Positions 749 to 39,927 of a DNA stretch of 64,000 bases are shown here, piece by piece. Location: sequence record OP870144.1; one strand, written 5' to 3'. The notes below the pieces were generated by a model that did no database searches, was not told where the DNA came from, and was given only the letters and a program-made list of their open reading frames with translations. Origin of the DNA: Escherichia phage vB_Eco_F25. Each line of letters begins with the position of its first letter. Position 1 is the stretch's first letter. The position numbers and the translations under genes were made by a program.

Positions 749-2728
749 ATGACTTTATTATCTCCGGGCATTGAGCTCAAAGAAACTACGGTTCAAAGCA
801 CCGTTGTTAATAACTCTACTGGTACAGCAGCTTTGGCCGGTAAATTCCAGTGGGGTCCTGCTTTTCAGATTAAACAGGTTACAAATGAAGTAGATTTAGT
901 TAATACTTTTGGTCAACCTACAGCTGAAACTGCTGATTATTTTATGTCTGCAATGAATTTCTTACAATATGGAAATGATTTGCGAGTTGTGCGTGCTGTC
1001 GATAGAGATACCGCTAAAAACTCATCTCCGATTGCTGGTAATATTGAATACACTATTTCAGCCCCAGGTAGTAACTACGCGGTTGGAGATAAAATCACGG
1101 TTAAGTATGTTTCAGAAAATGTTGAAACAGAGGGTAAAATTACCGAAGTAGATGCTGATGGAAAAATTAAGAAAATTAATATTCCTACCGCAAAAATTAT
1201 CGCTAAAGCGAAAGAAGTCGGTGAATATCCAGCATTAGGTTCTAACTGGACCGCGGAAATTTCTTCGTCTTCCTCTGGTTTAGCTGCAGTAATAACTCTT
1301 GGAAAAATTATTACTGATTCCGGTATTTTATTAGCTGAAATTGAAAATGCTGAAGCTGCTATGACAGCGGTTGACTTTCAGGCAAATCTCGAAAAATATG
1401 GAATTCCAGGAGTAGTAGCTCTTTATCCAGGCGAGTTGGGCGATAAAATCGAAATTGAAATCGTATCTAAAGCTGACTACGCAAAAGGTGCTTCTGCATT
1501 ACTCCCAATTTATCCAGGTGGTGGAACACGCGCATCTACTGCCAAGGCAGTGTTTGGATATGGACCACAAACTGATTCACAATACGCTATTATAGTTCGT
1601 CGTAATGATGCTATTGTTCAAAGCGTTGTTCTTTCAACAAAGCGTGGTGAAAAAGATATTTACGATAGTAACATCTATATTGATGACTTTTTCGCAAAAG
1701 GTGGTTCAGAATATATTTTTGCAACTGCACAAAACTGGCCAGAAGGCTTCTCTGGAATTTTAACTCTGTCTGGTGGATTATCATCAAATGCTGAAGTAAC
1801 AGCAGGAGATTTGATGGAAGCCTGGGACTTCTTTGCTGACCGTGAATCCGTTGACGTTCAGTTGTTTATTGCGGGTTCTTGTGCCGGTGAATCTTTAGAA
1901 ACAGCATCTACTGTCCAAAAACACGTCGTTTCAATTGGGGATGCTCGCCAAGATTGCTTAGTATTGTGCTCACCACCGCGTGAAACTGTAGTTGGAATTC
2001 CTGTAACTCGTGCTGTCGATAACTTAGTCAATTGGAGAACTGCAACGGGTTCATACACTGATAATAACTTTAATATCAGTTCAACCTATGCAGCAATTGA
2101 TGGTAACTACAAATATCAGTATGACAAATATAATGATGTAAATCGCTGGGTTCCATTAGCAGCTGATATTGCCGGTTTATGTGCAAGAACCGATAACGTT
2201 TCTCAGACTTGGATGTCTCCAGCTGGTTATAATCGCGGTCAGATTCTTAACGTTATTAAACTTGCTATTGAAACTCGCCAAGCTCAGCGCGACCGTTTAT
2301 ACCAAGAAGCTATCAACCCAGTAACTGGTACAGGTGGTGATGGTTACGTATTATATGGTGATAAAACAGCTACTTCTGTTCCTTCTCCATTTGATCGTAT
2401 TAACGTTCGTCGTCTGTTTAATATGTTGAAAACGAATATCGGACGTAGTTCAAAATATCGTTTGTTCGAATTAAACAACGCGTTTACTCGTTCATCATTC
2501 CGCACAGAAACTGCCCAATACTTACAGGGAATTAAAGCTCTCGGTGGAATTTATGAATATCGTGTAGTTTGCGATACAACAAATAATACTCCGTCAGTAA
2601 TTGATAGAAATGAGTTTGTTGCAACATTCTACATCCAACCGGCTAGAAGCATTAACTACATTACCTTGAACTTCGTAGCAACTGCTACTGGTGCAGATTT
2701 CGATGAGTTAACTGGTCTTGCAGGTTAA
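749..2728 (+). CDS. 18: contractile tail sheath protein gp18
   Basis: 659-aa ORF, same length as T4 gp18; position between 17 and 19; preceded by TATAAATA late promoter. Confidence 0.95.
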   Translation: MTLLSPGIELKETTVQSTVVNNSTGTAALAGKFQWGPAFQIKQVTNEVDLVNTFGQPTAETADYFMSAMNFLQYGNDLRVVRAVDRDTAKNSSPIAGNIEYTISAPGSNYAVGDKITVKYVSENVETEGKITEVDADGKIKKINIPTAKIIAKAKEVGEYPALGSNWTAEISSSSSGLAAVITLGKIITDSGILLAEIENAEAAMTAVDFQANLEKYGIPGVVALYPGELGDKIEIEIVSKADYAKGASALLPIYPGGGTRASTAKAVFGYGPQTDSQYAIIVRRNDAIVQSVVLSTKRGEKDIYDSNIYIDDFFAKGGSEYIFATAQNWPEGFSGILTLSGGLSSNAEVTAGDLMEAWDFFADRESVDVQLFIAGSCAGESLETASTVQKHVVSIGDARQDCLVLCSPPRETVVGIPVTRAVDNLVNWRTATGSYTDNNFNISSTYAAIDGNYKYQYDKYNDVNRWVPLAADIAGLCARTDNVSQTWMSPAGYNRGQILNVIKLAIETRQAQRDRLYQEAINPVTGTGGDGYVLYGDKTATSVPSPFDRINVRRLFNMLKTNIGRSSKYRLFELNNAFTRSSFRTETAQYLQGIKALGGIYEYRVVCDTTNNTPSVIDRNEFVATFYIQPARSINYITLNFVATATGADFDELTGLAG

Positions 2729-2744
2729 TACGGTGCATTCTAAA

Positions 2745-2762
2745 GGCCTGTTTCGGCAGGCC
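2745..2762 (+). other. RNA hairpin after gene 18 (6-bp GC stem)
   Basis: GGCCTG-TTTCGG-CAGGCC; no U-tract, so likely an RNA stability/processing element rather than a terminator. Confidence 0.45.
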
Positions 2763-2763
2763 A

Positions 2764-2771
2764 TATAAATA
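2764..2771 (+). promoter_or_regulatory. late promoter TATAAATA (gene 19, distal)
   Basis: Exact TATAAATA after hairpin following gene 18. Confidence 0.6.
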
Positions 2772-2822
2772 CACTATATCCTTAATTCTTTAATTCTATA
2801 TGCCCTAGGTTAAACATAGGGA

Positions 2823-2830
2823 TATAAATA
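2823..2830 (+). promoter_or_regulatory. late promoter TATAAATA (gene 19, proximal)
   Basis: Exact TATAAATA 15 nt upstream of gene 19 ATG. Confidence 0.55.
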
Positions 2831-2844
2831 CTACAGAGGCTAAT

Positions 2845-3336
2845 ATGTTTGTAGATGATGTAACACGAGCGTTTGAATCTGGTGATTTTGCTCGACCTAA
2901 CTTATTCCAAGTAGAAATTTCTTATCTTGGACAAAATTTTACGTTTCAATGCAAAGCCACTGCTTTACCAGCTGGTATTGTAGAAAAAATTCCAGTCGGA
3001 TTTATGAACCGTAAAATTAACGTAGCAGGCGATCGTACATTCGATGACTGGACTATTACAGTAATGAATGATGAGGCACATGATGCACGCCAGAAGTTTG
3101 TTGACTGGCAAAGCATTGCTGCTGGGCAAGGAAACGAAATTACTGGTGGAAAACCAGCAGAGTATAAAAAGAGTGCTATTGTACGCCAATATGCTCGTGA
3201 CGCTAAAACTGTAACAAAAGAAGTCGAAATTAAAGGCCTGTGGCCTACTAACGTGGGTGAACTTCAGTTAGATTGGGATTCAAACAATGAAATCCAAACC
3301 TTTGAAGTAACTCTTGCTCTCGATTATTGGGAATAA
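2845..3336 (+). CDS. 19: tail tube protein gp19
   Basis: 163-aa ORF, T4 gp19 length and position; two TATAAATA motifs upstream. Confidence 0.95.
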   Translation: MFVDDVTRAFESGDFARPNLFQVEISYLGQNFTFQCKATALPAGIVEKIPVGFMNRKINVAGDRTFDDWTITVMNDEAHDARQKFVDWQSIAAGQGNEITGGKPAEYKKSAIVRQYARDAKTVTKEVEIKGLWPTNVGELQLDWDSNNEIQTFEVTLALDYWE

Positions 3337-3341
3337 AATGA

Positions 3342-3359
3342 ATGGGGAGAAATCCCCAT
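3342..3359 (+). other. RNA hairpin with GAAA tetraloop between genes 19 and 20
   Basis: ATGGGGA-GAAA-TCCCCAT perfect 7-bp stem. Confidence 0.45.
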
Positions 3360-3368
3360 CCTGCTTAA

Positions 3369-4993
<1,625 letters not shown>

Positions 4994-4994
<1 letters not shown>

Positions 4995-5233
4995 TGGAAG
5001 GTTTAATTGAAGCTATTAAATCAAACGACCTCGTAGCCGCTCGTAAATTATTTGCTGAAGCCATGGCTGCAAGAACGACTGATTTAATCAAAGAAGAAAA
5101 AATCACTATCGCTCGTAATTTCTTAATCGAAGGTGAAGAACCTGAAGATGAAGATGAAGATGATGACGAAGATAGCGATGATAAAGACGACAAAAAAGAC
5201 AAAGACTCTGACGAAGACGAGGATGATGAATAA
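4994..5233 (+). CDS. 67: prohead core protein gp67 with acidic D/E-rich C-terminal tail
   Basis: 79-aa ORF overlapping gene 20 stop (ATGA-type coupling); poly-Asp/Glu tail; T4 gene order. Confidence 0.85.
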
Positions 5234-5658: not shown

Positions 5659-6296
5659 TGAATGAACCCCAATTACTAATTGAAACTTGGGGTCAACCTG
5701 GCGAAATTATTGATGGCGTACCAATGCTTGAATCTCATGATGGAAAAGACTTAGGTTTAAAACCTGGTTTATACATCGAAGGAATATTTATGCAAGCGGA
5801 AGTCGTCAATAGAAATAAACGTCTTTATCCAAAACGCATATTAGAAAAAGCGGTAAAAGACTATATTAATGAGCAAGTTTTAACTAAACAAGCTCTCGGA
5901 GAATTAAATCATCCTCCACGCGCTAATGTTGACCCGATGCAAGCCGCTATCATTATAGAAGATATGTGGTGGAAAGGAAATGACGTATACGGACGAGCTC
6001 GTGTTATTGAAGGTGACCATGGTCCTGGAGATAAATTAGCAGCTAATATTCGTGCCGGATGGATTCCAGGAGTTTCTTCTCGTGGATTAGGTTCATTGAC
6101 TGACACAAATAAAGGTTATCGTATCGTAAACGAAGGATTCAAATTAACTGTAGGTGTTGATGCAGTATGGGGTCCAAGTGCTCCAGATGCATGGGTAACT
6201 CCTAAGGAAATTACAGAATCACAGACGGCGGAAGCCGATACAAGTGCCGATGACGCCTATATGGCTCTCGCAGAGGCCATGAAAAAAGCGTTATAA
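5658..6296 (+). CDS. 21: prohead core scaffold protein and protease gp21
   Basis: 212-aa ORF, length and position as T4 gp21. Confidence 0.9.
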   Translation: MNEPQLLIETWGQPGEIIDGVPMLESHDGKDLGLKPGLYIEGIFMQAEVVNRNKRLYPKRILEKAVKDYINEQVLTKQALGELNHPPRANVDPMQAAIIIEDMWWKGNDVYGRARVIEGDHGPGDKLAANIRAGWIPGVSSRGLGSLTDTNKGYRIVNEGFKLTVGVDAVWGPSAPDAWVTPKEITESQTAEADTSADDAYMALAEAMKKAL

Positions 6297-19906: not shown

Positions 19907-20387
19907 TAAAGAAGTTTCTATTCCTAAAATGGGTCTTAAACATTATAACATTTTAAAAGATGTTAAAGGTCCTGATGAAAATTTAAAACTTCTTATTGAT
20001 TCTATTTGTCCGAATTTATCACCGGCAGAAGTTGATTTCGTTTCTATTCATTTATTGGAATTTAATGGAAAGATTAAATCTCGTAAAGAAATAGATGGTT
20101 ATACTTATGACATTAATGATGTTTATGTGTGCCAAAGATTAGAATTTCAATACCAAGGAAATACATTTTATTTTAGACCTCCTGGAAAATTTGAACAATT
20201 TTTAACGGTGAGCGATATGTTATCTAAATGCTTGCTTAAGGTCAATGATGAAGTTAAAGAAATTAATTTTCTTGAGATGCCAGCATTCGTTTTAAAATGG
20301 GCAAATGATATTTTTACAACTTTAGCAATTCCTGGCCCTAATGGTCCAATAACTGGAATTGGCAATATTATTGGATTATTTGAATGA
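19854..20387 (+). CDS. 28: baseplate hub distal subunit gp28
   Basis: 177-aa ORF overlapping gene 27 end by about 50 nt; T4 gp28 length. Confidence 0.85.
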
Positions 20388-22156
20388 AAAAGCCACAAGA
20401 AATGCAAACGATGCGTAGAAAAGTTATTTCAGATAATAAACCAACACAGGAAGCGGCTAAATCCGCTTCCAACACTTTATCTGGACTTAATGATATATCT
20501 ACGAAATTGGATGATGCTCAAGCTGCTTCTGAATTAATAGCTCAAACTGTCGAAGAAAAATCGAATGAAATAGTTGGAGCAATTGGTAACGTAGAAAGCG
20601 CAGTGAGTGATACTACTGCCGGTTCTGAGTTAATTGCTGAAACTGTTGAAATTGGCAACAATATTAATAAAGAAATCGGTGAATCACTCGGGAGCAAATT
20701 AGATAAATTAACAAGTTTACTAGAGCAAAAAATTCAGACAGCTGGAATTCAACAGACTGGGACTAGTTTAGCCACAGTTGAAAGCGCTATTCCTGTTAAA
20801 GTCGTTGAGGATGATACTGCTGAATCTGTGGGTCCTTTATTACCGGCTCCCGAAGCAGTTAATAATGATCCTGACGCTGATTTTTTCCCTACCCCTCAAC
20901 CAGTTGAGCCAAAGCAAGAATCACCAGAAGAAAAACAGAAAAAAGAAGCATTTAACTTAAAATTATCTCAAGCTTTAGATAAATTAACAAAGACTGTTGA
21001 TTTTGGATTTAAGAAATCCATTTCAATTAGTGATAAAATATCAAGCATGTTATTTAAGTATACTGTCAGTGCTGCTATTGAAGCCGCTAAAATGACTGCA
21101 ATGATATTGGCTGTTGTTGTTGGAATAGACCTGTTGATGGTTCATTTTAAATACTGGTCAGATAAATTTTCAAAAGCCTGGGATTTATATAGTACTGATT
21201 TTACTAAATTCTCTAGCGAAACCGGAACATGGGGTCCTTTATTACAGAGCATCTTTGATTCTATTGATAAAATTAAACAACTTTGGGAAGCGGGAGATTG
21301 GGGTGGTTTGACTGTAGCTATCATAGAAGGACTTGGAAGTGTTCTTTTTAATTTAGGAGAGCTTATTCAATTAGGTATGGCTAAATTATCTGCAGCAATT
21401 CTTCGAGTCATTCCTGGTATGAAGGATACTGCTGATGAAGTAGAAGGAAGAGCATTGGAAAATTTCCAAAATTCTACTGGAGCATCTCTCAATAAAGAAG
21501 ACCAAGAAAAAGTTGCAAATTATCAAGATAAACGAATGAACGGAGACCTTGGTCCAATAGCAAAAGGATTAGATAAAATTGCTAATTGGAAAACTCGTGC
21601 ATCTAATTGGATTCGTGGGGTTGATAATAAAGAAGCACTAACTACCGACGAAGAACGCGCAGCAGAAGAAGAAAAATTAAAGCAACTTTCACCTGAAGAA
21701 AGAAAAAATGCTTTAATGAAGGCTAATGAAGCCCGTGCCGCAATGATTCGCTTTGAAAAATATGCTGATTCAGCTGATATGAGTAAAGACTCAACGGTTA
21801 AATCTGTTGAATCTGCCTATGAAGACCTTAAAAAACGGATGGATGACCCGGATTTAAACAATTCACCGGCAGTTAAAAAAGAACTTGCTGCTAGATTTTC
21901 TAAAATTGATGCTACTTATCAAGAGCTCAAGAAAAATCAGCCTAATGCCAAACCTGAAACTTCTGCTAAATCGCCAGAAGCAAAACAAGTCCAGGTAATA
22001 GAAAAGAACAAAGCACAGCAAGCTCCTGTTCAACAAGCATCTCCTTCGATCAATAATACTAATAACGTTGTTAAGAAAAATACTGTCGTTCATAATATGA
22101 CACCCGTAACGAGCACGACTGCTCCTGGTGTATTTGATGCGACTGGAGTTAATTAA
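20384..22156 (+). CDS. 29: baseplate hub / tail length determining protein gp29
   Basis: 590-aa ORF, ATGA overlap with gene 28; T4 gp29 length. Confidence 0.9.
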   Translation: MKKPQEMQTMRRKVISDNKPTQEAAKSASNTLSGLNDISTKLDDAQAASELIAQTVEEKSNEIVGAIGNVESAVSDTTAGSELIAETVEIGNNINKEIGESLGSKLDKLTSLLEQKIQTAGIQQTGTSLATVESAIPVKVVEDDTAESVGPLLPAPEAVNNDPDADFFPTPQPVEPKQESPEEKQKKEAFNLKLSQALDKLTKTVDFGFKKSISISDKISSMLFKYTVSAAIEAAKMTAMILAVVVGIDLLMVHFKYWSDKFSKAWDLYSTDFTKFSSETGTWGPLLQSIFDSIDKIKQLWEAGDWGGLTVAIIEGLGSVLFNLGELIQLGMAKLSAAILRVIPGMKDTADEVEGRALENFQNSTGASLNKEDQEKVANYQDKRMNGDLGPIAKGLDKIANWKTRASNWIRGVDNKEALTTDEERAAEEEKLKQLSPEERKNALMKANEARAAMIRFEKYADSADMSKDSTVKSVESAYEDLKKRMDDPDLNNSPAVKKELAARFSKIDATYQELKKNQPNAKPETSAKSPEAKQVQVIEKNKAQQAPVQQASPSINNTNNVVKKNTVVHNMTPVTSTTAPGVFDATGVN

Positions 22157-22164
22157 GGAATAAT

Positions 22165-23259
22165 ATGGCAATTGTTAAAGAAATAACTACTGATTTAATT
22201 AAAAAGTCCGGTGAGAAAATTTCAGCCGGACAGAGCACTAAATCAGAAGTAGTAACTAAAACATACACTGCCCAGTTTCCAACTGGGCGTGCTAGTGGTA
22301 ATGACACTACAGGGGACTTCCAGGTAACAGATCTATATAAGAATGGATTATTATTTACTGCATACAATATGTCATCTAGGGATTCTGGAAGTCTTAGATC
22401 GATGAGATCTAACTACTCTTCTTCATCTTCGAGTATTTTAAGTACAGCTAGAAACACTATTAGTAGTACAGTATCAAAATTATCAAATGGATTAATATCA
22501 AATAATAATTCAGGAACAATAAGTAAAGCTCCTGTCGCAAACATTCTTTTACCGAGATCTAAATCTGATGTTGACACATCATCACATAGATTTAATGATG
22601 TTCAAGAAAGCCTTATCAGTAGAGGCGGAGGTACTGCTACTGGTGTGCTAAGTAATGTTGCTTCAACCGCAGTATTTGGGGCACTGGAAAGTATAACACA
22701 AGGTATAATGGCTGATAATAATGAACAGATTTATACGACAGCCAGAAGTATGTATGGTGGTGCTGAAAATAGAACTAAAGTGTTTACATGGGATTTGACT
22801 CCACGTTCAACAGAAGATTTAATGGCTATTATTAATATCTATCAATATTTTAACTATTTTTCTTATGGTGAAACAGGTAAATCTCAATATGCTGCTGAAA
22901 TAAAGGGGTATTTAGATGATTGGTATCGTTCTACGTTAATTGAACCTTTATCTCCGGAAGACGCAGCTAAAAATAAAACACTATTTGAGAAAATGACAGC
23001 AAGTTTAACGAACGTTCTAGTAGTTTCAAACCCGACAGTTTGGATGGTGAAAAACTTTGGCGCAACATCTAAGTTTGATGGAAAAACGGAAATATTTGGT
23101 CCATGCCAAATACAGAGCATTAGATTTGATAAAACACCTAATGGTAACTTTAACGGATTAGCTATTGCTCCAAACCTCCCTAGTACATTTACTCTCGAGA
23201 TTACTATGAGAGAAATTATCACGTTAAACCGTGCTTCTTTATATGCGGGGACTTTTTAA
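22165..23259 (+). CDS. 48: baseplate tail-tube junction protein gp48
   Basis: 364-aa ORF; T4 gp48 length and position. Confidence 0.9.
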   Translation: MAIVKEITTDLIKKSGEKISAGQSTKSEVVTKTYTAQFPTGRASGNDTTGDFQVTDLYKNGLLFTAYNMSSRDSGSLRSMRSNYSSSSSSILSTARNTISSTVSKLSNGLISNNNSGTISKAPVANILLPRSKSDVDTSSHRFNDVQESLISRGGGTATGVLSNVASTAVFGALESITQGIMADNNEQIYTTARSMYGGAENRTKVFTWDLTPRSTEDLMAIINIYQYFNYFSYGETGKSQYAAEIKGYLDDWYRSTLIEPLSPEDAAKNKTLFEKMTASLTNVLVVSNPTVWMVKNFGATSKFDGKTEIFGPCQIQSIRFDKTPNGNFNGLAIAPNLPSTFTLEITMREIITLNRASLYAGTF

Positions 23260-24224
23260 TGTATTCTTTAGAGGAATTTAATAATCAAGCAATAAACGCA
23301 GATTTCCAACGTAATAATATGTTTAGCTGCGTTTTTGCAACAACTCCATCAACTAAAAGCTCTTCGTTGATAAGTTCAATTAGCAACTTTTCTTATAATA
23401 ACTTGGGCCTAAATTCAAATTGGTTAGGATTAACTCAAGGTGATATTAATCAGGGAATTACCACGCTAATTACAGCTGGCACACAAAAACTAATAAGAAA
23501 ATCAGGAGTCAGTAAATATCTTATTGGTGCCATGAGTCAACGTACTGTCCAGAGTTTATTAGGCTCATTTACAGTTGGTACATATTTAATTGACTTCTTT
23601 AACATGGCATATAACTCATCTGGATTGATGATATACTCTGTAAAAATGCCAGAGAATAGATTATCCTATGAAACTGACTGGAACTATAATTCTCCTAATA
23701 TTCGTATAACTGGGAGAGAATTAGACCCTTTGGTTATTTCATTTAGAATGGATTCAGAAGCTTGTAACTATCGTGCAATGCAAGACTGGGTTAACTCCGT
23801 TCAAGACCCAGTAACTGGATTACGTGCTTTGCCACAAGATGTCGAGGCAGATATTCAGGTTAATCTTCATTCTCGTAATGGATTGCCTCATACTGCGGTG
23901 ATGTTCACCGGATGCATTCCAATATCAGTGAGCGCTCCTGAGTTATCATATGATGGAGATAACCAAATAACTACATTTGATGTTACTTTTGCGTATAGAG
24001 TGATGCAGGCTGGAGCAGTTGATAGACAAGCTGCGCTTGAATGGCTTGAATCTGCTACTATAAATGGTATTCAAAGCGTTCTCGGAAATAGTGGAGGTGT
24101 TACTGGACTATCTAATTCGCTTTCACGACTCAGTAGATTAGGTGGAACTGCAGGAAGCATTTCAAACATTAATACTATGACAGGAATTGTCAATTCGCAA
24201 AGTAAAATATTAGGAGCAATATAA
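23259..24224 (+). CDS. 54: baseplate tail-tube initiator gp54
   Basis: 321-aa ORF overlapping gene 48 stop; T4 gp54. Confidence 0.9.
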   Translation: MYSLEEFNNQAINADFQRNNMFSCVFATTPSTKSSSLISSISNFSYNNLGLNSNWLGLTQGDINQGITTLITAGTQKLIRKSGVSKYLIGAMSQRTVQSLLGSFTVGTYLIDFFNMAYNSSGLMIYSVKMPENRLSYETDWNYNSPNIRITGRELDPLVISFRMDSEACNYRAMQDWVNSVQDPVTGLRALPQDVEADIQVNLHSRNGLPHTAVMFTGCIPISVSAPELSYDGDNQITTFDVTFAYRVMQAGAVDRQAALEWLESATINGIQSVLGNSGGVTGLSNSLSRLSRLGGTAGSISNINTMTGIVNSQSKILGAI

Positions 24225-24226
24225 CA

Positions 24227-24248
24227 ATGGGGACCGAAAGGTCCCCAT
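24227..24248. terminator. bidirectional hairpin terminator between convergent genes 54 and alt.-3
   Basis: ATGGGGACC-GAAA-GGTCCCCAT followed by ATTTTTATTT. Confidence 0.75.
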
Positions 24249-24252
24249 ATTT

Positions 24253-24543
24253 TTATTTACGGAATGAAATGAAAGCAGCAACTGAAGCAACTAAACTGTC
24301 TTCAATATAAACTTCAATTTTTACCGGAGCTTCTGACTCAAATTTACCTGTTACTACACCCTGAAAAATACTTTCAGTCTGTTCTGGCTTTGAAAAATTT
24401 TCAGAAGGAAAAATTCCAAATTTTTTATCTGTTCCGAAAATTTTGATAAATTCATCATAAACTGCTTCATTAAAAGCGTTATCAGCAGGAATAACGCCTT
24501 CAACTACAAGTTCTTGACCTAAAAAGCGTAAAGAAGATTTCAT
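24253..24543 (-). CDS. alt.-3: hypothetical protein (T4 alt.-3 position)
   Basis: 96-aa ORF with AGGA SD, immediately downstream of an early promoter cassette. Confidence 0.6.
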   Translation of the reverse strand: MKSSLRFLGQELVVEGVIPADNAFNEAVYDEFIKIFGTDKKFGIFPSENFSKPEQTESIFQGVVTGKFESEAPVKIEVYIEDSLVASVAAFISFRK

Positions 24544-24551
24544 TTTGTGTT

Positions 24552-24604
24552 CCTCATGTTATGTTAGTAAGACTACTATAACACAACACGAGGGACTTGT
24601 AAAC
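24552..24604 (-). promoter_or_regulatory. early promoter/stem-loop cassette (PeSL-like), copy 1, upstream of alt.-3
   Basis: Minus strand: TTTACA-17 nt-TATAGT with 9-bp inverted repeat flanking the -10, then AGGA SD; 51/53 identical to copy at 38284-38336. Confidence 0.7.
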
Positions 24605-24778
24605 TACATTTTGAACTTTTAGTACGCGTAATAGGCATGCGTCGATTTTATACTGTTTCATTGTTTGAAGAGCAGTATCAAAAACAGCATTAATGACACC
24701 AATTGGATTTCCACCCAAGTTTTTAAGCTTAACTAATGATAGTTTCTCATTAACACCTATCATTACGATATGCATCAT
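24554..24778 (-). pseudogene. alt.-2: alt-like fragment, second half of a frameshifted partial duplicate of the alt 5' end
   Basis: 74-aa ORF; first ~50 aa align with Alt residues ~64-115 (MMHIV...QTM[RK]QYKIDAC[ML]LR[IV]LK), then runs into promoter cassette. Confidence 0.5.
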
Positions 24779-24960
24779 TTTGTCGCCTGGTTTAACGTTT
24801 TATCTGTATCACCGCCAGAGGTGTATGTACAAAATCTAAATCCAGGAAGCACGCTTTCTTCGCCGGCTTGAATAGCAAAAATTTGTGGTATTTTATGCTT
24901 AGGATTTAAGTTAACAACCGGCGCCGAAGCGCCGTCAAATAATTCTGTAATAAGTTCCAT
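24775..24960 (-). pseudogene. alt.-1: alt-like fragment, first half of a frameshifted partial duplicate of the alt 5' end
   Basis: 61-aa ORF aligning with Alt residues 2-62 (MELITELFD...CTYTSGGDT); ends at TGA overlapping alt.-2 ATG. Confidence 0.5.
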
Positions 24961-24963
24961 GAT

Positions 24964-27054
24964 TTATCCTTGAACGAACTTGTAAGGCATGTTTGCAATA
25001 TCTATGCAAGACGCAATAATTCCAAGAGATGATTCTACTTTCTGTTTAACATTTGATGAAACAAATGATGCAAAGTCAACTCTATCTTCTATATCACCTG
25101 TCATTGTAACCAATTCACCAGTTTCCATTAAATGGTCTCCGTCATAGATTACCGATTCGGTGAGTTCTTCTGTGGTCATAACTTCAGCTTGAATGAGTTT
25201 TGTATTATTAGATGTTGTTCCGTCATTATTAGAAGCATCAGTTATTTTATTAACTTTGACCATCAATCCGCGCGGTAGAATAACTTCAGCTTCTGTTGCT
25301 ATTCCGAGACTTCCTGGATATACAACATTAACTTTATGAGCTCCATCAATTGCCCATCCTATTTGAACTTTAACGTATTCAGGATTTTCTTTATACGCTC
25401 TTATTTCGCTTGGATTAATAGTTATTCCTTCTTCATTTTTATCAACTGTCAATTCATTACGAGCTTCTGGTTCTAAAAGACCAATACCAGCATGTGTAAT
25501 TCCAAAACGTCCAAAAATGATAGGAGTTAAAGAAGTAGATACAAAATTTCTGAAATAGAACACTTTATTTTTAACTAGTGCTTCGTATATAGGAGCAGTC
25601 ATGCTTTGAGCACGATAAACTGTAATGCCTTCTGGTATACGGTCACCATTTTCAAAAGCTGAATCTAAGTTATTTATAGCAGATTCAATTTCTTTTTCAC
25701 TCATTACATCATATCGTTCTGGATTGTAACGACCCAAAAGAAGATTATTGATGTCAGTATATCCTGAACCACAATACTCTCTAATGCCGCGCTTTTGTGA
25801 TGGAGTATATTTAGAACCATCACGGGCAATAGTAATATCAATCATTGGACCTGCACCAATTCCAGAAAAACTGTAAATCATTCGTTTGAGGAATTTAGTT
25901 TTTGCTGCGTTCCAGGAATTTTTAGTTATTTCTTCCCAGACTTCATCTGGTTGTCCTTTACGATTTTTATTATGATTAGCAAGCCATTTATCTTTATAAT
26001 CTTCAAAGAATTGATTTACAGCTGCTGCGTATTTCTCTAAACATTTTATTGAAGTAGTTGGTTCATTTTTAATTGCATTAAAAATTACTTCTTTAATTTT
26101 TTCTGAAACTTCATTAACCTCACTTTTTGAAAAGAATTTATAGTCATAGTGAAGTTCATCTGCGGTTCCTTCGGCAATAATTTTTGCTGCCTTAGTTTTA
26201 GAAGCTAATGAATTAATTCCAAGCTTCATTTCTTCTGCTTCGGGAATTAAAGGAGCTGTAGCAGGTTTATTGAAATTAGCTGCGGTAGATTCATATTTCT
26301 GGAATAATTCGCTTTCAAATCTAGAAGATTCTAATGACTGACTTTGCGCAATTGCTCTACGGGAAATTTTAACTTTAACGATTACAGCTTGGTCAGAACG
26401 TTTATCATTTTCTTGTGCAATAGATGCTGCAATTGCCTCATTTTTAGTTACTTGGGCTCCAGTATCTTTATTGATATAAACATCACCGACTTTTGATTCA
26501 ACTTTAGTAAAGAGCTCGGTACTAATTTCCGGAACTCCTGGAATGTCTTCTAGTGATACATTTTTGCGATGTATAAGAATATATGCGTACTTTTTATCAT
26601 AATCCCAGAGTTCCTTAAGAAGGACGTATCTACCACCTGAACGACTACGGATAAGTCTATCAGCAATAACTTGAATTTGTCGAGCTTGGCCAGCAGTTTT
26701 AGACTTAAGAATACGAAGCATACAAGCATCAATTTTATATTGACGCATTGTTTGCATTGCAACAGTAAAAACTGAATTGATATAATTAATTGGGCTTGGA
26801 CCAAGACCTTTTAATTTAGCAATTGAACCTTTAGCAGTTAATGTAAAAGGAACAATATGCATCATTTTATCGCCCATCTTTAAATCGCGATTAGTATCAC
26901 CTCCAGATGTATAGGTACATAAACGAAAGCCTGGTTGTTCAATTGCATCATCAACATGAACTGAAAAAATTTGTGGTATTTTCTTCTTTGGATTTAAGTT
27001 TGTAATCGGAAGAGTAGTATCTTCGTCAAATAATTCTGTAATGAGTTCCATCAT
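24964..27054 (-). CDS. alt: Alt ADP-ribosyltransferase (packaged, modifies host RNA polymerase)
   Basis: 696-aa ORF (two adjacent ATGs at start); C-terminal half carries R/S-T-S/E-x-E ART-like motifs; TATAAATA late promoter upstream. Confidence 0.9.
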   Translation of the reverse strand: MMELITELFDEDTTLPITNLNPKKKIPQIFSVHVDDAIEQPGFRLCTYTSGGDTNRDLKMGDKMMHIVPFTLTAKGSIAKLKGLGPSPINYINSVFTVAMQTMRQYKIDACMLRILKSKTAGQARQIQVIADRLIRSRSGGRYVLLKELWDYDKKYAYILIHRKNVSLEDIPGVPEISTELFTKVESKVGDVYINKDTGAQVTKNEAIAASIAQENDKRSDQAVIVKVKISRRAIAQSQSLESSRFESELFQKYESTAANFNKPATAPLIPEAEEMKLGINSLASKTKAAKIIAEGTADELHYDYKFFSKSEVNEVSEKIKEVIFNAIKNEPTTSIKCLEKYAAAVNQFFEDYKDKWLANHNKNRKGQPDEVWEEITKNSWNAAKTKFLKRMIYSFSGIGAGPMIDITIARDGSKYTPSQKRGIREYCGSGYTDINNLLLGRYNPERYDVMSEKEIESAINNLDSAFENGDRIPEGITVYRAQSMTAPIYEALVKNKVFYFRNFVSTSLTPIIFGRFGITHAGIGLLEPEARNELTVDKNEEGITINPSEIRAYKENPEYVKVQIGWAIDGAHKVNVVYPGSLGIATEAEVILPRGLMVKVNKITDASNNDGTTSNNTKLIQAEVMTTEELTESVIYDGDHLMETGELVTMTGDIEDRVDFASFVSSNVKQKVESSLGIIASCIDIANMPYKFVQG

Positions 27055-27074
27055 ATCCTCTCTAGTGTTTATTC

Positions 27075-27082
27075 TATTTATA
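27075..27082 (-). promoter_or_regulatory. late promoter TATAAATA for alt
   Basis: Minus-strand TATAAATA 21 nt upstream of alt ATG, just after hairpin terminator. Confidence 0.65.
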
Positions 27083-27087
27083 AAATT

Positions 27088-27105
27088 AAAGGCCCGAAGG
27101 CCTTT
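27088..27105 (-). terminator. hairpin terminator upstream of alt late promoter
   Basis: AAAGGCC-CGAA-GGCCTTT; on minus strand followed by AATTTTATAAATAG. Confidence 0.6.
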
Positions 27106-27292
27106 AGTAATCTAGTGGTAAGAGAGTACGATATATTTCAAACTTTGGTCCTTTTTCATAGGCATCAAATGTTTCTGTAAATTTATTATAAGCGTATGCA
27201 TCTACAAATTCGAGAATGACTTGTGATACAGAAGTAGAAACATCTCCACCTTCTTTTTGAGCAATGACAATTGTTTCTAAGTAAGCTTTCAT
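27104..27292 (-). CDS. hypothetical small protein between gene 30 and alt
   Basis: 62-aa ORF, start overlaps ligase stop; no recognised motif. Confidence 0.5.
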   Translation of the reverse strand: MKAYLETIVIAQKEGGDVSTSVSQVILEFVDAYAYNKFTETFDAYEKGPKFEIYRTLLPLDY

Positions 27293-28752
27293 AGACCAGT
27301 TACCTCATGAAAATCACCAAATACATCCTCGAATGTATTAGCTTTAGTTTTATCTTCACGTAAACGAATCGCAATCGGAAGAAATAATTTAACGTAATCA
27401 GTACGTCCATCTAATTTTACCCAGCCGTTGCATTCGCACTCTAGAATTTTTCCAATATAATAATTTTGGTTTTCCATAATGCGAGTACGGTCAAGTTCAT
27501 GCGATTTTACGCCGGCTTTATCTTTTAAGCCTGAACCAGCATTTACTTTAATTTTTCCACACTCTGACTCAAGAATAAATCCACCTGCTTTAGTAGGGTC
27601 TTTACGGTGAGGATAAATTCCTACAATTTTTAAATCAACATCAATTACTTCTTTAAATTTATAAAGATTTTTTGAACGAGCATTTTCCCATAATCCATCG
27701 ATATTTTTGAGAATAATACCTTCAAGACCTTGGTCAATATACTTTTTGTAAATTACCTTAGCTTCATCTAGGTTATTTACTACTTGGTTTTCAATTAAAA
27801 TTACTTTATCATAGCCTGATGTCATTTGTTCTAGTTTAGAAAAACGTACATCATATTTTAAACGAAACGCCGGAAGACCGTATATTTCTACCAACGGAAC
27901 ATAATCCCAGACCTGAAACTTCATGCATTGAGCTTCTTTTTCTGAAATAGTTCCCTTTAAAGATTTATTAGCGATTCCATTAGAAGTAGTACGTGATTCA
28001 GCTACTTCGGCGAATTCTTTAGCTTTACTAATTTCAGGATAAGCATCAAAAAGAAAATCTAGGCCTTCTGGCTCCTTTTCAACTTGCTCATGGTATACCA
28101 ATTCGCCATCAATTAACACACCTTCTGGATGAATCTGGCGAGCTTCTGCAGTCATTTTGATTAACTCTTCTTTGAGAAGATCTAATCCTAGATATTCATT
28201 ACCAGCTCGTGATAAAAGACGAACATCATCTAATTCATCACCTCTGACTTCAGCAAAGCACCGAGCTCCATCAGCTTTTAATTGGGCAAAGGCTGGAAAT
28301 TTGATATTCTTATTAATGCCTTTTTCATCATAAGAACTTGCCAGCATTTGAGGTTGTTCAGGAATTAAACCTGGCCAAACTTTGTTTGCAATAGATACTG
28401 ATGCACCACATTCAAGGTCTCGCATCATCACCCGACGCAAAACTTCAACATCATCTTTTTTACCGTCAGCAATATATCCAGTTAATTCCTCAATTGCCGC
28501 ATTTCCGGTCAATTTCCGAGTAGCTAACGTGAATTCAATGAAGTCAAGCATATCGGTAAGAGTCAACATTCCAAAACTCTGGGTAGCAATACCAGGTTTA
28601 GGCCATTTCTTGATATAATACTGTAACCCACGAGAATAAGTCAGACGATATACTCGTTTAAGCAATTCATTATCTTTATTCTTTTCAAGAATTGCTTGCT
28701 TCTGCTTAGTTGAACCAATAGATGCTATTTCGTTCAGAATTTTAAGAATCAT
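27289..28752 (-). CDS. 30: ATP-dependent DNA ligase gp30
   Basis: 487-aa ORF with adenylation motif KADGAR; T4 DNA ligase length and sequence. Confidence 0.95.
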   Translation of the reverse strand: MILKILNEIASIGSTKQKQAILEKNKDNELLKRVYRLTYSRGLQYYIKKWPKPGIATQSFGMLTLTDMLDFIEFTLATRKLTGNAAIEELTGYIADGKKDDVEVLRRVMMRDLECGASVSIANKVWPGLIPEQPQMLASSYDEKGINKNIKFPAFAQLKADGARCFAEVRGDELDDVRLLSRAGNEYLGLDLLKEELIKMTAEARQIHPEGVLIDGELVYHEQVEKEPEGLDFLFDAYPEISKAKEFAEVAESRTTSNGIANKSLKGTISEKEAQCMKFQVWDYVPLVEIYGLPAFRLKYDVRFSKLEQMTSGYDKVILIENQVVNNLDEAKVIYKKYIDQGLEGIILKNIDGLWENARSKNLYKFKEVIDVDLKIVGIYPHRKDPTKAGGFILESECGKIKVNAGSGLKDKAGVKSHELDRTRIMENQNYYIGKILECECNGWVKLDGRTDYVKLFLPIAIRLREDKTKANTFEDVFGDFHEVTGL

Positions 28753-29018
28753 TGTTCATCCTTTAGAGTTTGGTTTACAGCTCTATTATAAATCAATTCA
28801 TCATTAAGCTCAGTCAAAGACCTATGGTACGTGGTTCTAACTTTATTTCCTTGCATCCAGTGCTTGACGTAAATAAAACCTTGCTCTACACATTTTTTAA
28901 AAATTCGTTCGTCTTTTTGAGCTCGGAATTCTGGATTGCATCTAAAAAATTGATTTACGTGACCGTAATCACGTGTAGTATTACCTTCATTTTCATAAAT
29001 AGTGTGAACGACAAACAT
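28749..29018 (-). CDS. 30.1: hypothetical protein (T4 30.1 position)
   Basis: 89-aa ORF co-oriented, overlapping stops/starts. Confidence 0.6.
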   Translation of the reverse strand: MFVVHTIYENEGNTTRDYGHVNQFFRCNPEFRAQKDERIFKKCVEQGFIYVKHWMQGNKVRTTYHRSLTELNDELIYNRAVNQTLKDEQ

Positions 29019-29860
29019 TAGAATGCTCCTTGGAAAATATTATCACCACTAGTAGGTCTATTATACAAATACTCTATGCCACCAGGTTTAATATAGTTCC
29101 ATGTATGAAATGGATGCACATGATATGGATGTGTATAATATGGATGGTATGGATTTAATCCAGGAGTTCTCCAGGTAGTATTCCAACGAAAAGAATCGTT
29201 TTTAATCATCTTTTCAATTACATCTTTTATAGCTTTTTCACTATCAAAACTTTCTTTATTTTCCTTCGATGGAAAAAGCTTATTCTCTACATCATTCCAT
29301 GTATAAACTCGCTGAGCGGTTTTTGGAATACTGTCACGCTCCCCTCGAGCCATCCAATAAACAGGAACATTTAATATTTCACTCGCATGATCGCAGTGGT
29401 GAGCGAGATCGTCAATATAACAAATTACGTTATATTTCTCTTTTGCCTTTTTGAACAACTCTTCTTTTGAAGAATCATGACCACACATCAATACTTCTGA
29501 GAAGGCACCAGGAAAAAGAGCATTCAAATTAAATTGACGATTCAGCAGAGCGTCAATAGAATCACCCAATGCTGTAACAGCTACAAAATTATAATCTTCT
29601 TTTAATTTGTTAATTACGCACAGGGCATCTTTATATGGAGACAAATAGCGAATAAAATCTGAACGATTATACTTTTCGATTAATTTAACACCGAGTTCTT
29701 CATCGCAATTAAAGAGCTTACCAGGAGAAATAAATTTTTCGTCCTGAATCATTTTTAAAATATGTTCCAACGGAAGATTATATTTTTGGGCAAAATAAGG
29801 AAGGCCCGATTGCCAGCTTAAACACACCCCGTCAATATCAGTCAAAATAGTAGGCTTCAT
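29018..29860 (-). CDS. 30.2: HAD-superfamily-like hydrolase with His/Tyr/Pro-rich C-terminal tail (T4 30.2 position)
   Basis: 280-aa ORF; N-terminal DIDGV motif typical of HAD phosphatases; C-terminal PYHPYYTHPYHVHPFH. Confidence 0.65.
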   Translation of the reverse strand: MKPTILTDIDGVCLSWQSGLPYFAQKYNLPLEHILKMIQDEKFISPGKLFNCDEELGVKLIEKYNRSDFIRYLSPYKDALCVINKLKEDYNFVAVTALGDSIDALLNRQFNLNALFPGAFSEVLMCGHDSSKEELFKKAKEKYNVICYIDDLAHHCDHASEILNVPVYWMARGERDSIPKTAQRVYTWNDVENKLFPSKENKESFDSEKAIKDVIEKMIKNDSFRWNTTWRTPGLNPYHPYYTHPYHVHPFHTWNYIKPGGIEYLYNRPTSGDNIFQGAF

Positions 29861-30321
29861 AGAGAGTCTCTTAATAGGTTTAACACATCAATAAATTCAG
29901 CTTCGGTTAGTATTGTATCATCTTTTGTTAGACCACTAGCCATGCTGTGCTTCAAAACTTTTCCTTTCGAGGCTTGTAATGCATCACGAAAACCCCTGTT
30001 TTGGATCGCTGCTTCAAAATATGCATTTGTGTATAATTCTTTCCATGCTGGAGAGTATCTTGAAAATGGAACTCCAAGCCAGAACAACGTGCCACGGTCC
30101 TGAGCTCTAGCATAAGACCTTCCAGCTTGTTGGGCGGCAAGCCCGGATAACCCAAATATACGTCTTTGCTGTTCAACATTTTTCACCTTACATCCTTGGA
30201 GGAATCCTTCGAGACCTCCAAATTGGATACCATCCATAACAAAAGGCCATTGGGCGAAATTACTTAATGCACATGATGGCCATCTAAAATTGCTTCTAAT
30301 CTCTAGCTCAGACATTTTCAA
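29857..30321 (-). CDS. 30.3: NADAR/YbiA-like (DUF1768-like) protein (T4 30.3 position)
   Basis: 154-aa ORF; motif LSNFAQWP...DG..F...E.FLQGCK resembles NADAR family signature (recalled, not searched). Confidence 0.6.
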   Translation of the reverse strand: MKMSELEIRSNFRWPSCALSNFAQWPFVMDGIQFGGLEGFLQGCKVKNVEQQRRIFGLSGLAAQQAGRSYARAQDRGTLFWLGVPFSRYSPAWKELYTNAYFEAAIQNRGFRDALQASKGKVLKHSMASGLTKDDTILTEAEFIDVLNLLRDSL

Positions 30322-30514
30322 TACTTATAATTTCAACATCAGCCCAATGACCATAGCAAGGAAGACGAAATTCAATTGGCCAGTTAGGGTCCTTTTCTAA
30401 TATAATAGACTTAACTTGCGGTTCTTCATGTTCATCGGTATACGGACCTTTATATGTTACTTTATATGTGACCTTAATGTACTGAATTCCAAAAATCTTA
30501 TTAATTATATTCAT
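30308..30514 (-). CDS. 30.3': hypothetical small protein (T4 30.3' position)
   Basis: 68-aa ORF overlapping 30.3 end. Confidence 0.5.
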   Translation of the reverse strand: MNIINKIFGIQYIKVTYKVTYKGPYTDEHEEPQVKSIILEKDPNWPIEFRLPCYGHWADVEIISIENV

Positions 30515-30707
30515 ACTAATTCCTTTAATCCATAGATAGGAGATAATTCATCGCCCATACGAAGGTCTTCATTTCCATCTACCCAGGAAACAATATAAGC
30601 CTCTTTTATTTAAATACCACTCCATTTAAATGGAGGTAGAACCTTAGAAATTAATCCAGGTATACCAACTCCCTTTAATTCAACAGTTTGACCTAAAAAG
30701 AATTTCA

Positions 30708-30995
30708 TTAGAACCTCATCTGAAAGCCATGTGATTTAACATTACCGCCGCCAATATCAGAAATATTAATTTCACGCGCAATTGAAGGGTCAATGTCAAT
30801 TTCACGATTGAGTTTAGTGATAGCTAAAGTATCGCGGCCATTTACAGTACGGAACTCTAAAGGGCAGACTATATTAACATAGTTTTTAATCGATTCACTA
30901 GTAGGTTGCAAATGAGCAGGAAGGTCTTTAGGCGCCTTTGAGAAAACCACTTCACAGAAATTTTTACGGGTATCAAAATAAGTAGTCATAAACAT
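30708..30995 (-). CDS. 30.6: hypothetical protein (T4 30.6 position)
   Basis: 95-aa ORF with GAGGAAAA SD. Confidence 0.55.
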   Translation of the reverse strand: MFMTTYFDTRKNFCEVVFSKAPKDLPAHLQPTSESIKNYVNIVCPLEFRTVNGRDTLAITKLNREIDIDPSIAREINISDIGGGNVKSHGFQMRF

Positions 30996-31011
30996 AGTAT
31001 TTTCCTCAGTA

Positions 31012-31027
31012 AGGGGCCGAAGCCCCT
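31012..31027 (-). other. GC hairpin between 30.7 and 30.6
   Basis: AGGGGC-CGAA-GCCCCT without strong U-tract. Confidence 0.45.
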
Positions 31028-31036
31028 CATTTTATT

Positions 31037-31402
31037 TTAAATATCAAATTCGTTAAGAACTACATCAAAGATTGCTTCAAGATGCTCAGGTTTAGCTCTG
31101 TTACTCAAAATATGACGAATCCAAGTTTTAACCAGAAGCTTACGATTAACGCCATTCCAGCAAGGATGAGTCCCTAAATCGCGTTGACGGAAATCATCAT
31201 CTAATGCGATTTTAAAAGAAGAACCTTCTTTCGTGATTGAAACCGTGATGCCATTTTCAAATCGCATATAAACGTAGTTAGGAGTCATATACTGTTCAAT
31301 TTCGCATACTGATCCATTTTGATGTTTCCAAAGGCAGATAGTATCAATAGAACCTGCAATACCATTAGAAACATATTTACGTTCAAAGTTGATGTAGTTC
31401 AT
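31037..31402 (-). CDS. 30.7: hypothetical protein (T4 30.7 position)
   Basis: 121-aa ORF. Confidence 0.55.
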   Translation of the reverse strand: MNYINFERKYVSNGIAGSIDTICLWKHQNGSVCEIEQYMTPNYVYMRFENGITVSITKEGSSFKIALDDDFRQRDLGTHPCWNGVNRKLLVKTWIRHILSNRAKPEHLEAIFDVVLNEFDI

Positions 31403-31470
31403 TTTTATTCTCCGAGATGTTTAATTGCGGTACAGGTATATAATATCATATCCTGTACCAAAGTAAACAA

Positions 31471-31803
31471 TTATTTTACTACTTTCCAATGTTGCATGTC
31501 AAGTTTACCAACTTTTTTCATCTTCTCAATTAAGCGTTCGGCACGTTGGCGGGCTGTAACATAATACCATTCACCTAATTCATTTTGTTCAATTTTTCCA
31601 ACGATTACTGTATTCAATTCATAAATCCAGCCAGTAAAGAAATTATGAACTTGGATTGTAAAGGTGAAATCTGTTCCCATACCTTCTGTTGTTTCTACTT
31701 CAATAATATCACCTTCAACTGCCATTAAGAACCACATAGTTTCATCATATTTACCATTGAAGCATTTAGTTTTAACCGCAGCGTTCAGATTAATCGTTTT
31801 CAT
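31471..31803 (-). CDS. 30.8: hypothetical protein (T4 30.8 position)
   Basis: 110-aa ORF downstream of an early promoter-like element. Confidence 0.55.
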   Translation of the reverse strand: MKTINLNAAVKTKCFNGKYDETMWFLMAVEGDIIEVETTEGMGTDFTFTIQVHNFFTGWIYELNTVIVGKIEQNELGEWYYVTARQRAERLIEKMKKVGKLDMQHWKVVK

Positions 31804-31810
31804 TTTATTC

Positions 31811-31860
31811 TCCTTTGTTTGTGTAAGATAATACTATCACAAAGGAACTATACTGTAAAC
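31811..31860 (-). promoter_or_regulatory. early promoter-like element with stem-loop, upstream of 30.8
   Basis: Minus strand GTTTACA-17-TAGTAT; 8-bp inverted repeat TCCTTTGT/ACAAAGGA spanning the -10. Confidence 0.5.
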
Positions 31861-31913
31861 AACTTTGTGCAATCTTTGGAAAATAAAAAAGGACTCCCGA
31901 AGGAGTCCTCAAC

Positions 31914-32090
31914 TTATGCTTTCTGCTTACCAAAACGAGAAGCATCATCTCGAAGAACCGCACGTGCTCGGCGCATGATCTTCTCAACAGTTTGATTGAT
32001 ACGAGAGTTCGACCCACGCTTGTAACCAGCGCGTTTAGAATCACCAACTTTCTTTTCAACTGCTTTCTTTGCTTTAGCTTGTTTTGCCAT
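31914..32090 (-). CDS. 30.9: hypothetical small basic protein (T4 30.9 position)
   Basis: 58 aa from ATG 32088-32090 (MAKQAKAKK...); lysine/arginine rich. Confidence 0.55.
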   Translation of the reverse strand: MAKQAKAKKAVEKKVGDSKRAGYKRGSNSRINQTVEKIMRRARAVLRDDASRFGKQKA

Positions 32091-37431: not shown

Positions 37432-37781
37432 TTAGAAAGGTCCTGGATGTCTTCTGCGAACTTGTTGAAGGAGTTGTTGATTTGTTTTTCAACCAATCCT
37501 GGCTTATGGGCCACCACATCCGCCTTCTTTGCGTCTTTGCGCAGTTTTTCATTTTCACGCTCAATAGCAGCAATTGCCTCACGATTTTTATTATTCATCG
37601 CATCAATATAATTATACTGAATTCGCAAATTGTTTAATGCTAAGGCGTTTTCATTGGCCGTTTTTGTAATTTCTACAACAGACGTTTCTAATCTTTCAAT
37701 TTTATTTTTTAAAATTAAAGAAGTTCCGCCTAATGCAATTACAATTAATAGCAAACCTGCTGTCGTATTACTTAATTGCAT
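37428..37781 (-). CDS. pseT.3: inner-membrane spanin (i-spanin; T4 PseT.3-like)
   Basis: 117-aa ORF with N-terminal TMD (AGLLLIVIALGGTSLIL) and coiled-coil-like remainder. Confidence 0.75.
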   Translation of the reverse strand: MQLSNTTAGLLLIVIALGGTSLILKNKIERLETSVVEITKTANENALALNNLRIQYNYIDAMNNKNREAIAAIERENEKLRKDAKKADVVAHKPGLVEKQINNSFNKFAEDIQDLSK

Positions 37782-38278
37782 AAAGTTTTAATAACCTCTA
37801 TAATATCGTCTTGAGAAAGACCGTTAATTAAAATATGATGTTCCGCCGGAGATTTAGAAATTTTAAAGCATGCCGCAACATCTTCTGCCATATCCGATGC
37901 ACTACGATTTGGATTACTAATTCCAAGACGATGCTTTCCAGTCAAAGGATTAACGATGATATAGCATTTACAACTATTGATATGAACATTAGGTTGAGTC
38001 TGATTAATGAACACTTCACAATCATACTTAGCGAGTTGATTTTCTAAAAAGACTTTCATCTCCTCAACCGCATCAGGAAGCATATCACGGGCTTGCTCAA
38101 GACGACGATTTCGATATTCTTTAGTGGTCGTTTTCCGCTTGACTTGCTTCGCTAAATCTTTCTTAAGATCGGTGATATATCCAACTCGACGATTTCCTTT
38201 GAATACAGAAATCCCATCTGTAGTATCACCGTATGCTTCAACGACCATTTCAGTAGTAATAAGCTGCAAATCCATCAT
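37772..38278 (-). CDS. alc: Alc, inhibitor of host transcription elongation on cytosine DNA
   Basis: 168-aa ORF (MM start) at T4 alc position between spanins and rnlA; downstream of early promoter cassette. Confidence 0.8.
   Translation of the reverse strand: MMDLQLITTEMVVEAYGDTTDGISVFKGNRRVGYITDLKKDLAKQVKRKTTTKEYRNRRLEQARDMLPDAVEEMKVFLENQLAKYDCEVFINQTQPNVHINSCKCYIIVNPLTGKHRLGISNPNRSASDMAEDVAACFKISKSPAEHHILINGLSQDDIIEVIKTLCN

Positions 38279-38339: not shown

Positions 38340-39927
<1,588 letters not shown>

Follow-up and report, generated by a model that had tools for sequence, protein, structure and literature searches.

The Alt protein of bacteriophage T4, about 40 copies of which are packaged per head, ADP-ribosylates the RNA polymerase of the host. 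T4-type phages are also said to carry repeated early-promoter cassettes, known as PeSL elements and reportedly described by Arbiol et al. in 2010. Downstream of alt, the T4 genome contains two small open reading frames (ORFs), alt.-1 and alt.-2, the origin of which has already been recognized. According to a note in the T4T GenBank record, they [quoted passage not shown]. The two T4 genes were also described as paralogous duplications of alt by Nolan et al. (2006), who reported full and partial alt duplicates in phages 44RR and RB49 as well (PMC1524935). More recently, two Alt-like paralogues sharing 43% identity have been recorded in relatives (PMC13600099; 2026). Thus, the remnant described below is real but ordinary, and what the present analysis adds are the exact breakpoints with the associated 9-bp repeat, the frequencies of the alternative states in about 500 genomes, a catalogue of secondary lesions, a test for relaxed constraint and a frameshift specific to the genome studied here.

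We analysed a 64,000-nucleotide stretch of the genome of Escherichia phage vB_Eco_F25 (OP870144.1), referred to as the window. The phage is T4-like and belongs to the genus Tequatrovirus, with window positions 24200-25100 sharing 98.4% nucleotide identity with T4 and up to 99.0% with other isolates; for positions 20000-32000, the best match to a phage record is 97.5% over 12 kb. According to the ORF map, the genes alt, alt.-1, alt.-2 and alt.-3 follow each other in this order on the minus strand. The intact ADP-ribosyltransferase gene alt (24964..27054, minus strand) was assigned based on its 696-codon ORF and synteny with T4 alt; in the ORF list, the start equivalent to that of T4 (MELITE) is the second ATG, at 27051 on the minus strand. 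Its product matches the Pfam family PF03496 (ADPrib_exo_Tox) over residues 379-628 (E = 1.8e-37). On the 5' side of alt, direct reading revealed TATAAATA, a match to the T4 late-promoter consensus (27075..27082, minus strand), and the terminator scan placed a hairpin terminator just ahead of it (27087-27106). In T4, alt gives rise to a late transcript and a late protein (PMC9697503).

The ORFs alt.-1 (24775..24960, 61 codons) and alt.-2 (24554..24778, 74 codons here and 67 in T4) lie on the same minus strand and were delineated from the ORF list, BLASTP and PHROGs searches and alignment (with Shigella phage Sf21 in the case of alt.-1). Outside the remnant, their intact downstream neighbour alt.-3 (24253..24543, minus strand) encodes a 96-aa DUF5498 protein (Pfam PF17602, E = 1.4e-64), and the T4 Alt.-3 protein has been detected as an early product (PMC9697503, Table S2). 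The window and T4 (T4T GenBank HM137666; UniProt P39495 and P39494) share the position of the two ORFs between alt and alt.-3, the junction left by a 1,699-bp deletion and a frameshift in a run of adenines. T4 differs from the window in the absence of a 1-nt loss at the junction and in the tail of alt.-2, which ends with ...LKSSKCSLQVPRVVL followed by the stop codon (67 aa), as opposed to ...LKVQNVVYKSLVLCYSSLTNIT followed by the stop codon (74 aa) in the window, whereas the alt.-1 products of the two phages are distinguished by two amino-acid differences, N53D and I60T. The adjacent alt is represented by a 696-aa allele in the window and by a 682-aa allele in T4.

An earlier note on this DNA had aligned alt.-1 with Alt residues 2-62 and alt.-2 with residues of about 64-115 and proposed that the two pieces are separated by a -1 frameshift at overlapping TGA and ATG codons, and both propositions were borne out. 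BLASTP aligned alt.-1 with Alt residues 2-63 (58% identity, E = 3e-23) and alt.-2 with residues 64-117 (61% identity, E = 7e-21). Similarly, in the PHROGs search the N-terminal Alt-type region was recovered in two pieces, with alt.-1 matching positions 2-61 (E = 3.6e-18) and alt.-2 matching positions 64-118 (E = 5.8e-19) of phrog_802, a 674-position Alt-like profile; both ORFs were also searched against Pfam, with zero family matches. The stop codon of alt.-1 and the start codon of alt.-2 overlap as ATGA (ACA AAA TGA / ATG ATG), with alt.-2 lying in the -1 frame. The first 9 residues of alt.-1, MELITELFD, are exactly those of Alt, and the ancestral Shine-Dalgarno sequence, AAGGA, is retained inside the last codons of alt, 6 nt upstream of the alt.-1 start. 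The ancestral-frame homology of alt.-1 stops at approximately residue 53, at an A-run (24798-24801), leaving the last 8 codons out of frame, whereas alt.-2 comprises ancestral codons 62-116 followed by read-through into the junction and promoter DNA. The similarity is also significant at the nucleotide level, with 71.5% identity between the remnant and the 5' end of the alt gene in the window (200 nt aligned, E = 1.6e-24). In view of this low nucleotide identity, recent gene conversion between the two was rejected.

In contrast, the suggestion that the two ORFs descend from a partial duplicate of the 5' end of alt has to be revised in light of the intact copies in relatives. Phage Sf21 carries, between alt and alt.-3, a 685-codon gene annotated as "Alt-like RNA polymerase ADP-ribosyltransferase", with the annotators' remark that the "N-terminus is similar to phage T4 Alt.-1". 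At least 80% of this second gene is present in 402 of the 502 matching phage records, including those of T2, RB14, RB51 and AR1, and the T4-type remnant is present in 90 of 503 records. All 10 sampled intact copies maintain an uninterrupted 685-codon frame, with zero indels in the first 355 nt. The intact paralogue contains the PF03496 domain (E = 5.6e-20), and its Arg, Ser-Thr-Ser and Glu-x-Glu motifs (YR, STS and EAE) align with those of Alt; its identity to the window Alt is about 41% overall and about 60-65% over the first ~235 residues. The intact genes (Sf21 gp189, YP_009619003; T2_202; RB14ORF194) and the remnant occupy the same genomic slot and have the same Shine-Dalgarno sequence, start and downstream promoter cassette, and the first 348 nt of the intact gene are about 97% identical to the remnant, as counted from the nucleotide alignment with Sf21. 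The full 685-codon ORF, the PF03496 domain and the YR, STS and EAE motifs are, however, all missing from the remnant. T4 Alt, by comparison, is homologous to the remnant over its N-terminal ~117 residues (58-61% identity), with the catalytic domain lacking a counterpart in the remnant, and relates to the second gene as a paralogue rather than a copy (about 41% identity overall). Given that most relatives harbor an intact 685-codon paralogue, the ancestor of the remnant was a full, diverged tandem paralogue and not a partial duplicate. The comparison with relatives thereby supports the broader claim of the note, namely, that a tandem duplicate of alt was later truncated and frameshifted: about 80% of the relatives carry the full-length paralogue for which the note had proposed to look, and purifying selection does not maintain the small ORFs as conserved genes.

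The nucleotide alignment with Sf21 resolves the truncation to the base pair. Window positions 24965-24617 correspond to the first 349 nt of the Sf21 second gene, and positions 24620-24216 to its last 17 nt followed by the intergenic region and alt.-3. The 9-mer CTAAAAAGT occurs twice in the intact gene, at nt 340-348 and 2039-2047, and once in the remnant, indicating that the loss is a 1,699-bp internal deletion between 9-bp direct repeats. Codons ~117-680 were lost, and since the ADP-ribosyltransferase catalytic domain occupies residues 416-620 of the intact paralogue, the remnant retains nothing of it. The last 12-20 nt of the second gene were left behind, and the length of the deletion is not divisible by 3. 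A loss bounded by short direct repeats in this way is a classic footprint of slipped-strand or illegitimate recombination. Judging from the repeat positions, the junction CTAAAAGT (24615..24622, minus strand) is the sole surviving, and here 1-nt-shortened, copy of the repeat. It is followed by TTC AAA ATG TAG (24604..24615, minus strand), which alignment with the 3' end of the Sf21 gene (...MSKKFKM, then stop) identifies as the last four codons of the deleted paralogue, now out of frame. Similarity to Alt had been noted to stop where a promoter cassette begins; it does end near the cassette (at 24617), although the cause is the deletion junction, and 12 nt of the old gene (24615-24604) intervene before the cassette begins at 24604. 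The possibility that the T4 junction is in frame with the ancestral C-terminus was excluded by translation, consistent with the length of the deletion, and T4 Alt.-2 ends with ...SSKCSLQVPRVVL followed by the stop codon.

The junction, …CGCGTACTAAAA(A)GTTCAAAATGTAG…, is identical in T4T and 16 other remnants, from which the window differs only by an A-run that is 1 nt shorter. This window-specific reduction from A5 to A4 (24617-24620) moves the stop codon of alt.-2 from the TAG inside the -10 box of the downstream promoter to a TGA located 10 nt upstream of the alt.-3 ATG. The exact A4 variant was absent from the 17 other remnants and from IMG/VR, where a flexible junction pattern retrieved two T4-type junctions only; the variant is thus either confined to this phage or an artefact of sequencing through a homopolymer.

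A second single-nucleotide loss accounts for the two-ORF architecture. Alignment with Sf21 and 9 more intact copies shows that AATAAAAAC of the intact genes has its counterpart in GATAAAAC of the remnant, i.e., A5 has become A4 at 24798..24801 (minus strand), and this 1-nt loss splits the stump into alt.-1 and alt.-2. In one remnant, that of phage EC128, the run is still A5 and the first frameshift is absent, in agreement with the order implied by the T4 annotation, in which the deletion came first and the frameshift second. The same arrangement might alternatively be read as programmed -1 ribosomal frameshifting that fuses the ORFs into one Alt N-terminal protein of about 128 aa, given that alt.-2 overlaps alt.-1 in the -1 frame and that the pieces jointly rebuild a contiguous Alt-like N-terminus. 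Nevertheless, a slippery heptamer of the form X XXY YYZ was not seen on direct reading of the 30-nt overlap, GATAAAACGTTAAACCAGGCGACAAAATGA, comparison with 10 intact genes explains the shift by the loss of a single nucleotide, and the sole unshifted remnant (EC128) has a stop at codon 6. Furthermore, the two-ORF architecture is not conserved, since relatives have a single continuous ORF (all 10 intact copies) or extra lesions, which makes recoding at this site scarcely conceivable. A PRFect claim of frameshifting in ADP-ribosyltransferases was set aside, because it concerns unrelated VIP2/MuF fusions.

Immediately downstream of the remnant lies a 54-nt early-promoter cassette for alt.-3 (24551..24604, minus strand), recognized by the promoter scan, its conservation in Sf21 and its repetition within the window. 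It consists of a -35 element GTTTAC (24599-24604), a TG-extended -10 element TATAGT (24575-24580), a 5'UTR leader and a GAGGA Shine-Dalgarno sequence, and the promoter is a strong sigma-70-type match (10/12 with TG). In Sf21, the cassette is also conserved behind the intact paralogue. Within the window, it recurs at 38336-38283 (minus strand), with 2 mismatches relative to 24551-24604, between the RNA ligase 1 gene (38340-39500) and an alc-like ORF (37772-38278); the sequence GTTTACAAGTCCCTC[G/A]TGTTGTGTTATAGTAGTCTTACT[A/G]ACATAACATGAGGA is thus found twice where none is expected by chance. The occurrence of two near-identical 54-nt promoter-to-Shine-Dalgarno cassettes at gene boundaries resembles the PeSL elements, from which the cassettes differ by the absence of a stem-loop ahead of the promoter. 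The cassette took no part in the deletion that formed the remnant, which used the 9-bp repeat inside the gene.

The proximity of the cassette raises the question of whether the remnant DNA could be kept for a non-coding role, either as sequence flanking the early promoter of alt.-3 on its upstream side or as part of the late alt mRNA, which it would stabilise as a 3' UTR. Such a role would fit the junction common to all 18 sampled remnants, the preservation of the final 12-20 nt of the lost gene immediately ahead of the -35 element and the persistence of the remnant in about 90 records. On the other hand, persistence is equally explained by a recent common origin, and in phage sutha an independent deletion took the whole 5' 1,930 nt of the second gene while the same promoter was kept, with only the 3' end of the gene being left. 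The 5' stump is thus dispensable for the promoter, and retention for a non-coding function appears extremely unlikely.

What the 18 remnant loci and 10 intact loci sampled here point to instead is decay. Five further disabling lesions were found among the 18 remnant loci. The A-run frameshift affects 17 of them; codon 6 of alt.-1 has changed from GAA to the stop codon TAA in 9; a T-run within alt.-2 is 1 nt shorter in 3 (CE1, PD112 and IME537); a 7-bp tandem duplication disrupts alt.-2 in one (HY03); and the shortened junction A-run is confined to the window. For the 348 nt common to both types of locus, variants were classed according to the ancestral reading frame. The private variants of the intact copies comprised 0 nonsynonymous and 18 synonymous changes, compared to 9 nonsynonymous changes, a stop among them, and 5 synonymous changes in the remnants (Fisher p = 7e-5). 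This contrast, drawn from 32 private variants in a set of 28 sequences linked by descent and recombination, indicates that the shared 348 nt are under strong purifying selection in the full gene, with none detectable in the stump. The remnant thus does not present an uninterrupted reading frame under purifying selection, as attested by the frameshift, the lesions in relatives and the variant counts.

Decay of coding capacity does not preclude expression, and the earlier note had accordingly left a choice between a decaying pseudogene and expressed small proteins of the Alt N-terminal domain. The late promoter of alt, the lack of a terminator between alt and the remnant in the terminator scan and the retained Shine-Dalgarno sequence together predict that the remnant is transcribed. 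In a time-resolved transcriptomic and proteomic study of T4, transcripts of alt.-1 and alt.-2 were indeed detected, in the "middle" class, whereas neither protein was detected, in contrast to the late protein Alt (PMC9697503, Table S2). Functional mini-proteins, such as a fragment of Alt targeted to the prohead core or a packaging competitor, would be compatible with several features of the locus: alt.-1 remains open both here and in T4, an AAGGA Shine-Dalgarno sequence precedes it, the ATGA overlap permits translational coupling, and the late alt mRNA also covers the two ORFs. In addition, Alt loses N-terminal peptides to cleavage in the prohead (PMC9958956), and alt.-1 has the identical first 9 residues. 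Speaking against such proteins are the codon 6 stop in half of the remnant-bearing relatives, the independent frameshifting of alt.-2 in at least 3 further lineages (the window being counted among them), the mostly nonsynonymous private substitutions, unlike in the same segment of the intact genes, and the failure to detect the proteins in T4 (PMC9697503). On balance, functional mini-proteins are very unlikely. It is likewise highly improbable that, where alt.-1 is open (this phage and T4), the alt mRNA yields, late in infection, a 61-aa peptide that enters the prohead core, is processed there and modulates the loading of Alt as a packaged or competing peptide; were this the case, alt.-1 would be a domesticated gene fragment and not junk.

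We therefore strongly favor the decaying pseudogene over expressed mini-proteins, based on the independent lesions in relatives, the relaxed pattern of variants and the undetected T4 proteins: alt.-1 and alt.-2 very probably represent the non-functional, decaying remnant of a second tandem gene for an Alt-like ADP-ribosyltransferase. Lying on the alt late transcript and equipped with a Shine-Dalgarno sequence, the stump is transcribed and perhaps translated at a low level, with no selected coding function. Some translation is plausible considering that alt.-1 is open here and in T4, has a good Shine-Dalgarno sequence and starts with the same MELITELFD as Alt; small peptides are easily missed by shotgun proteomics, and non-detection is hence weak evidence. 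Moreover, about 90 isolates from around the world still share the remnant and its junction, indicating that its purging is not quick.

Next to the homology, the junction, the lesions and the relaxed constraint, which are observed directly, we infer the order of events and the mechanism of recombination as follows. An old tandem duplication of alt would have produced two paralogues that diverged and are both still present in most tequatroviruses, including T2 and RB14. In the lineage that gave this segment to T4 and to the present phage, slipped-strand or illegitimate recombination at the 9-bp repeats CTAAAAAGT presumably deleted 1,699 bp. The loss of 1 nt in the A5 run would then have split the 5' stump into two overlapping ORFs. 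Lineage-specific lesions have accumulated since; here, the 1-nt loss in the junction A-run has altered the tail of alt.-2 and extended it from 67 to 74 codons. The locus thus provides a clean example of gene loss in a lytic phage, in which a microhomology-mediated deletion was succeeded by frameshifts in homopolymers and by nonsense mutations, and in which relatives independently arrived at several other outcomes at this site.

These other outcomes are diverse. In sutha (locus 5906-6022), an independent deletion of the first ~1,930 nt has reduced the second gene to its last 38 codons. Yersinia phage PST (locus 1589-3649) has a single alt-like gene between alt.1 and alt.-3, which is paralogue-2-like throughout, and KAW1E185 (locus 3089-5146) has a single alt-like gene in the same position, the 5' end of which resembles paralogue 1 and the 3' end paralogue 2. 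The tandem alt pair appears to have been collapsed repeatedly by recombination. The alt gene itself is mosaic, with a hypervariable middle: window positions 25816-26244 have no blastn match to Sf21 alt, whereas the flanks match at 81-95%. In its length (696-aa ORF), the window alt resembles the 2,094-nt (697-codon) alleles annotated in slur14, UoN_LDJ77_1, T2 and RB14. The combination of a T4-type remnant with an alt near the length of the 697-codon allele (slur14, T2 and RB14) marks the phage as a mosaic tequatrovirus.

With respect to the second gene, laboratory T4 represents the minority state, with about 80% of its close relatives, including T2, encoding a second, apparently intact Alt-like ADP-ribosyltransferase. 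Because T4 lacks an intact copy, this second enzyme has never been studied in the T4 model, and no experimental study of it was found in the literature. The main value of the present analysis lies in annotation, i.e., in flagging alt.-1 and alt.-2 as pseudogene fragments and not as "hypothetical proteins" or "ADP-ribosyltransferases", as is the case in several public records. Public annotations at the alt locus are inconsistent or wrong. In the GEP001 record, both alt genes are mislabelled as "DNA ligase"; in that of HMD-9, alt.-3 is labelled as a "tail length tape-measure protein" and the remnants as ADP-ribosyltransferases; and in that of pSe_SNUABM_01, alt.-2 is labelled as a "putative ADP ribosyltransferase".

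Finally, a perfect 9-bp-stem hairpin, ATGGGGACC-GAAA-GGTCCCCAT (24227-24248), with T-runs following it on the plus strand, is located between the convergent gene 54 (plus strand, ending at 24224) and alt.-3 (minus strand, ending at 24253). It probably functions as a bidirectional terminator, and the records of G2540-3 and KAW1E185 carry an annotated terminator at the matching position.
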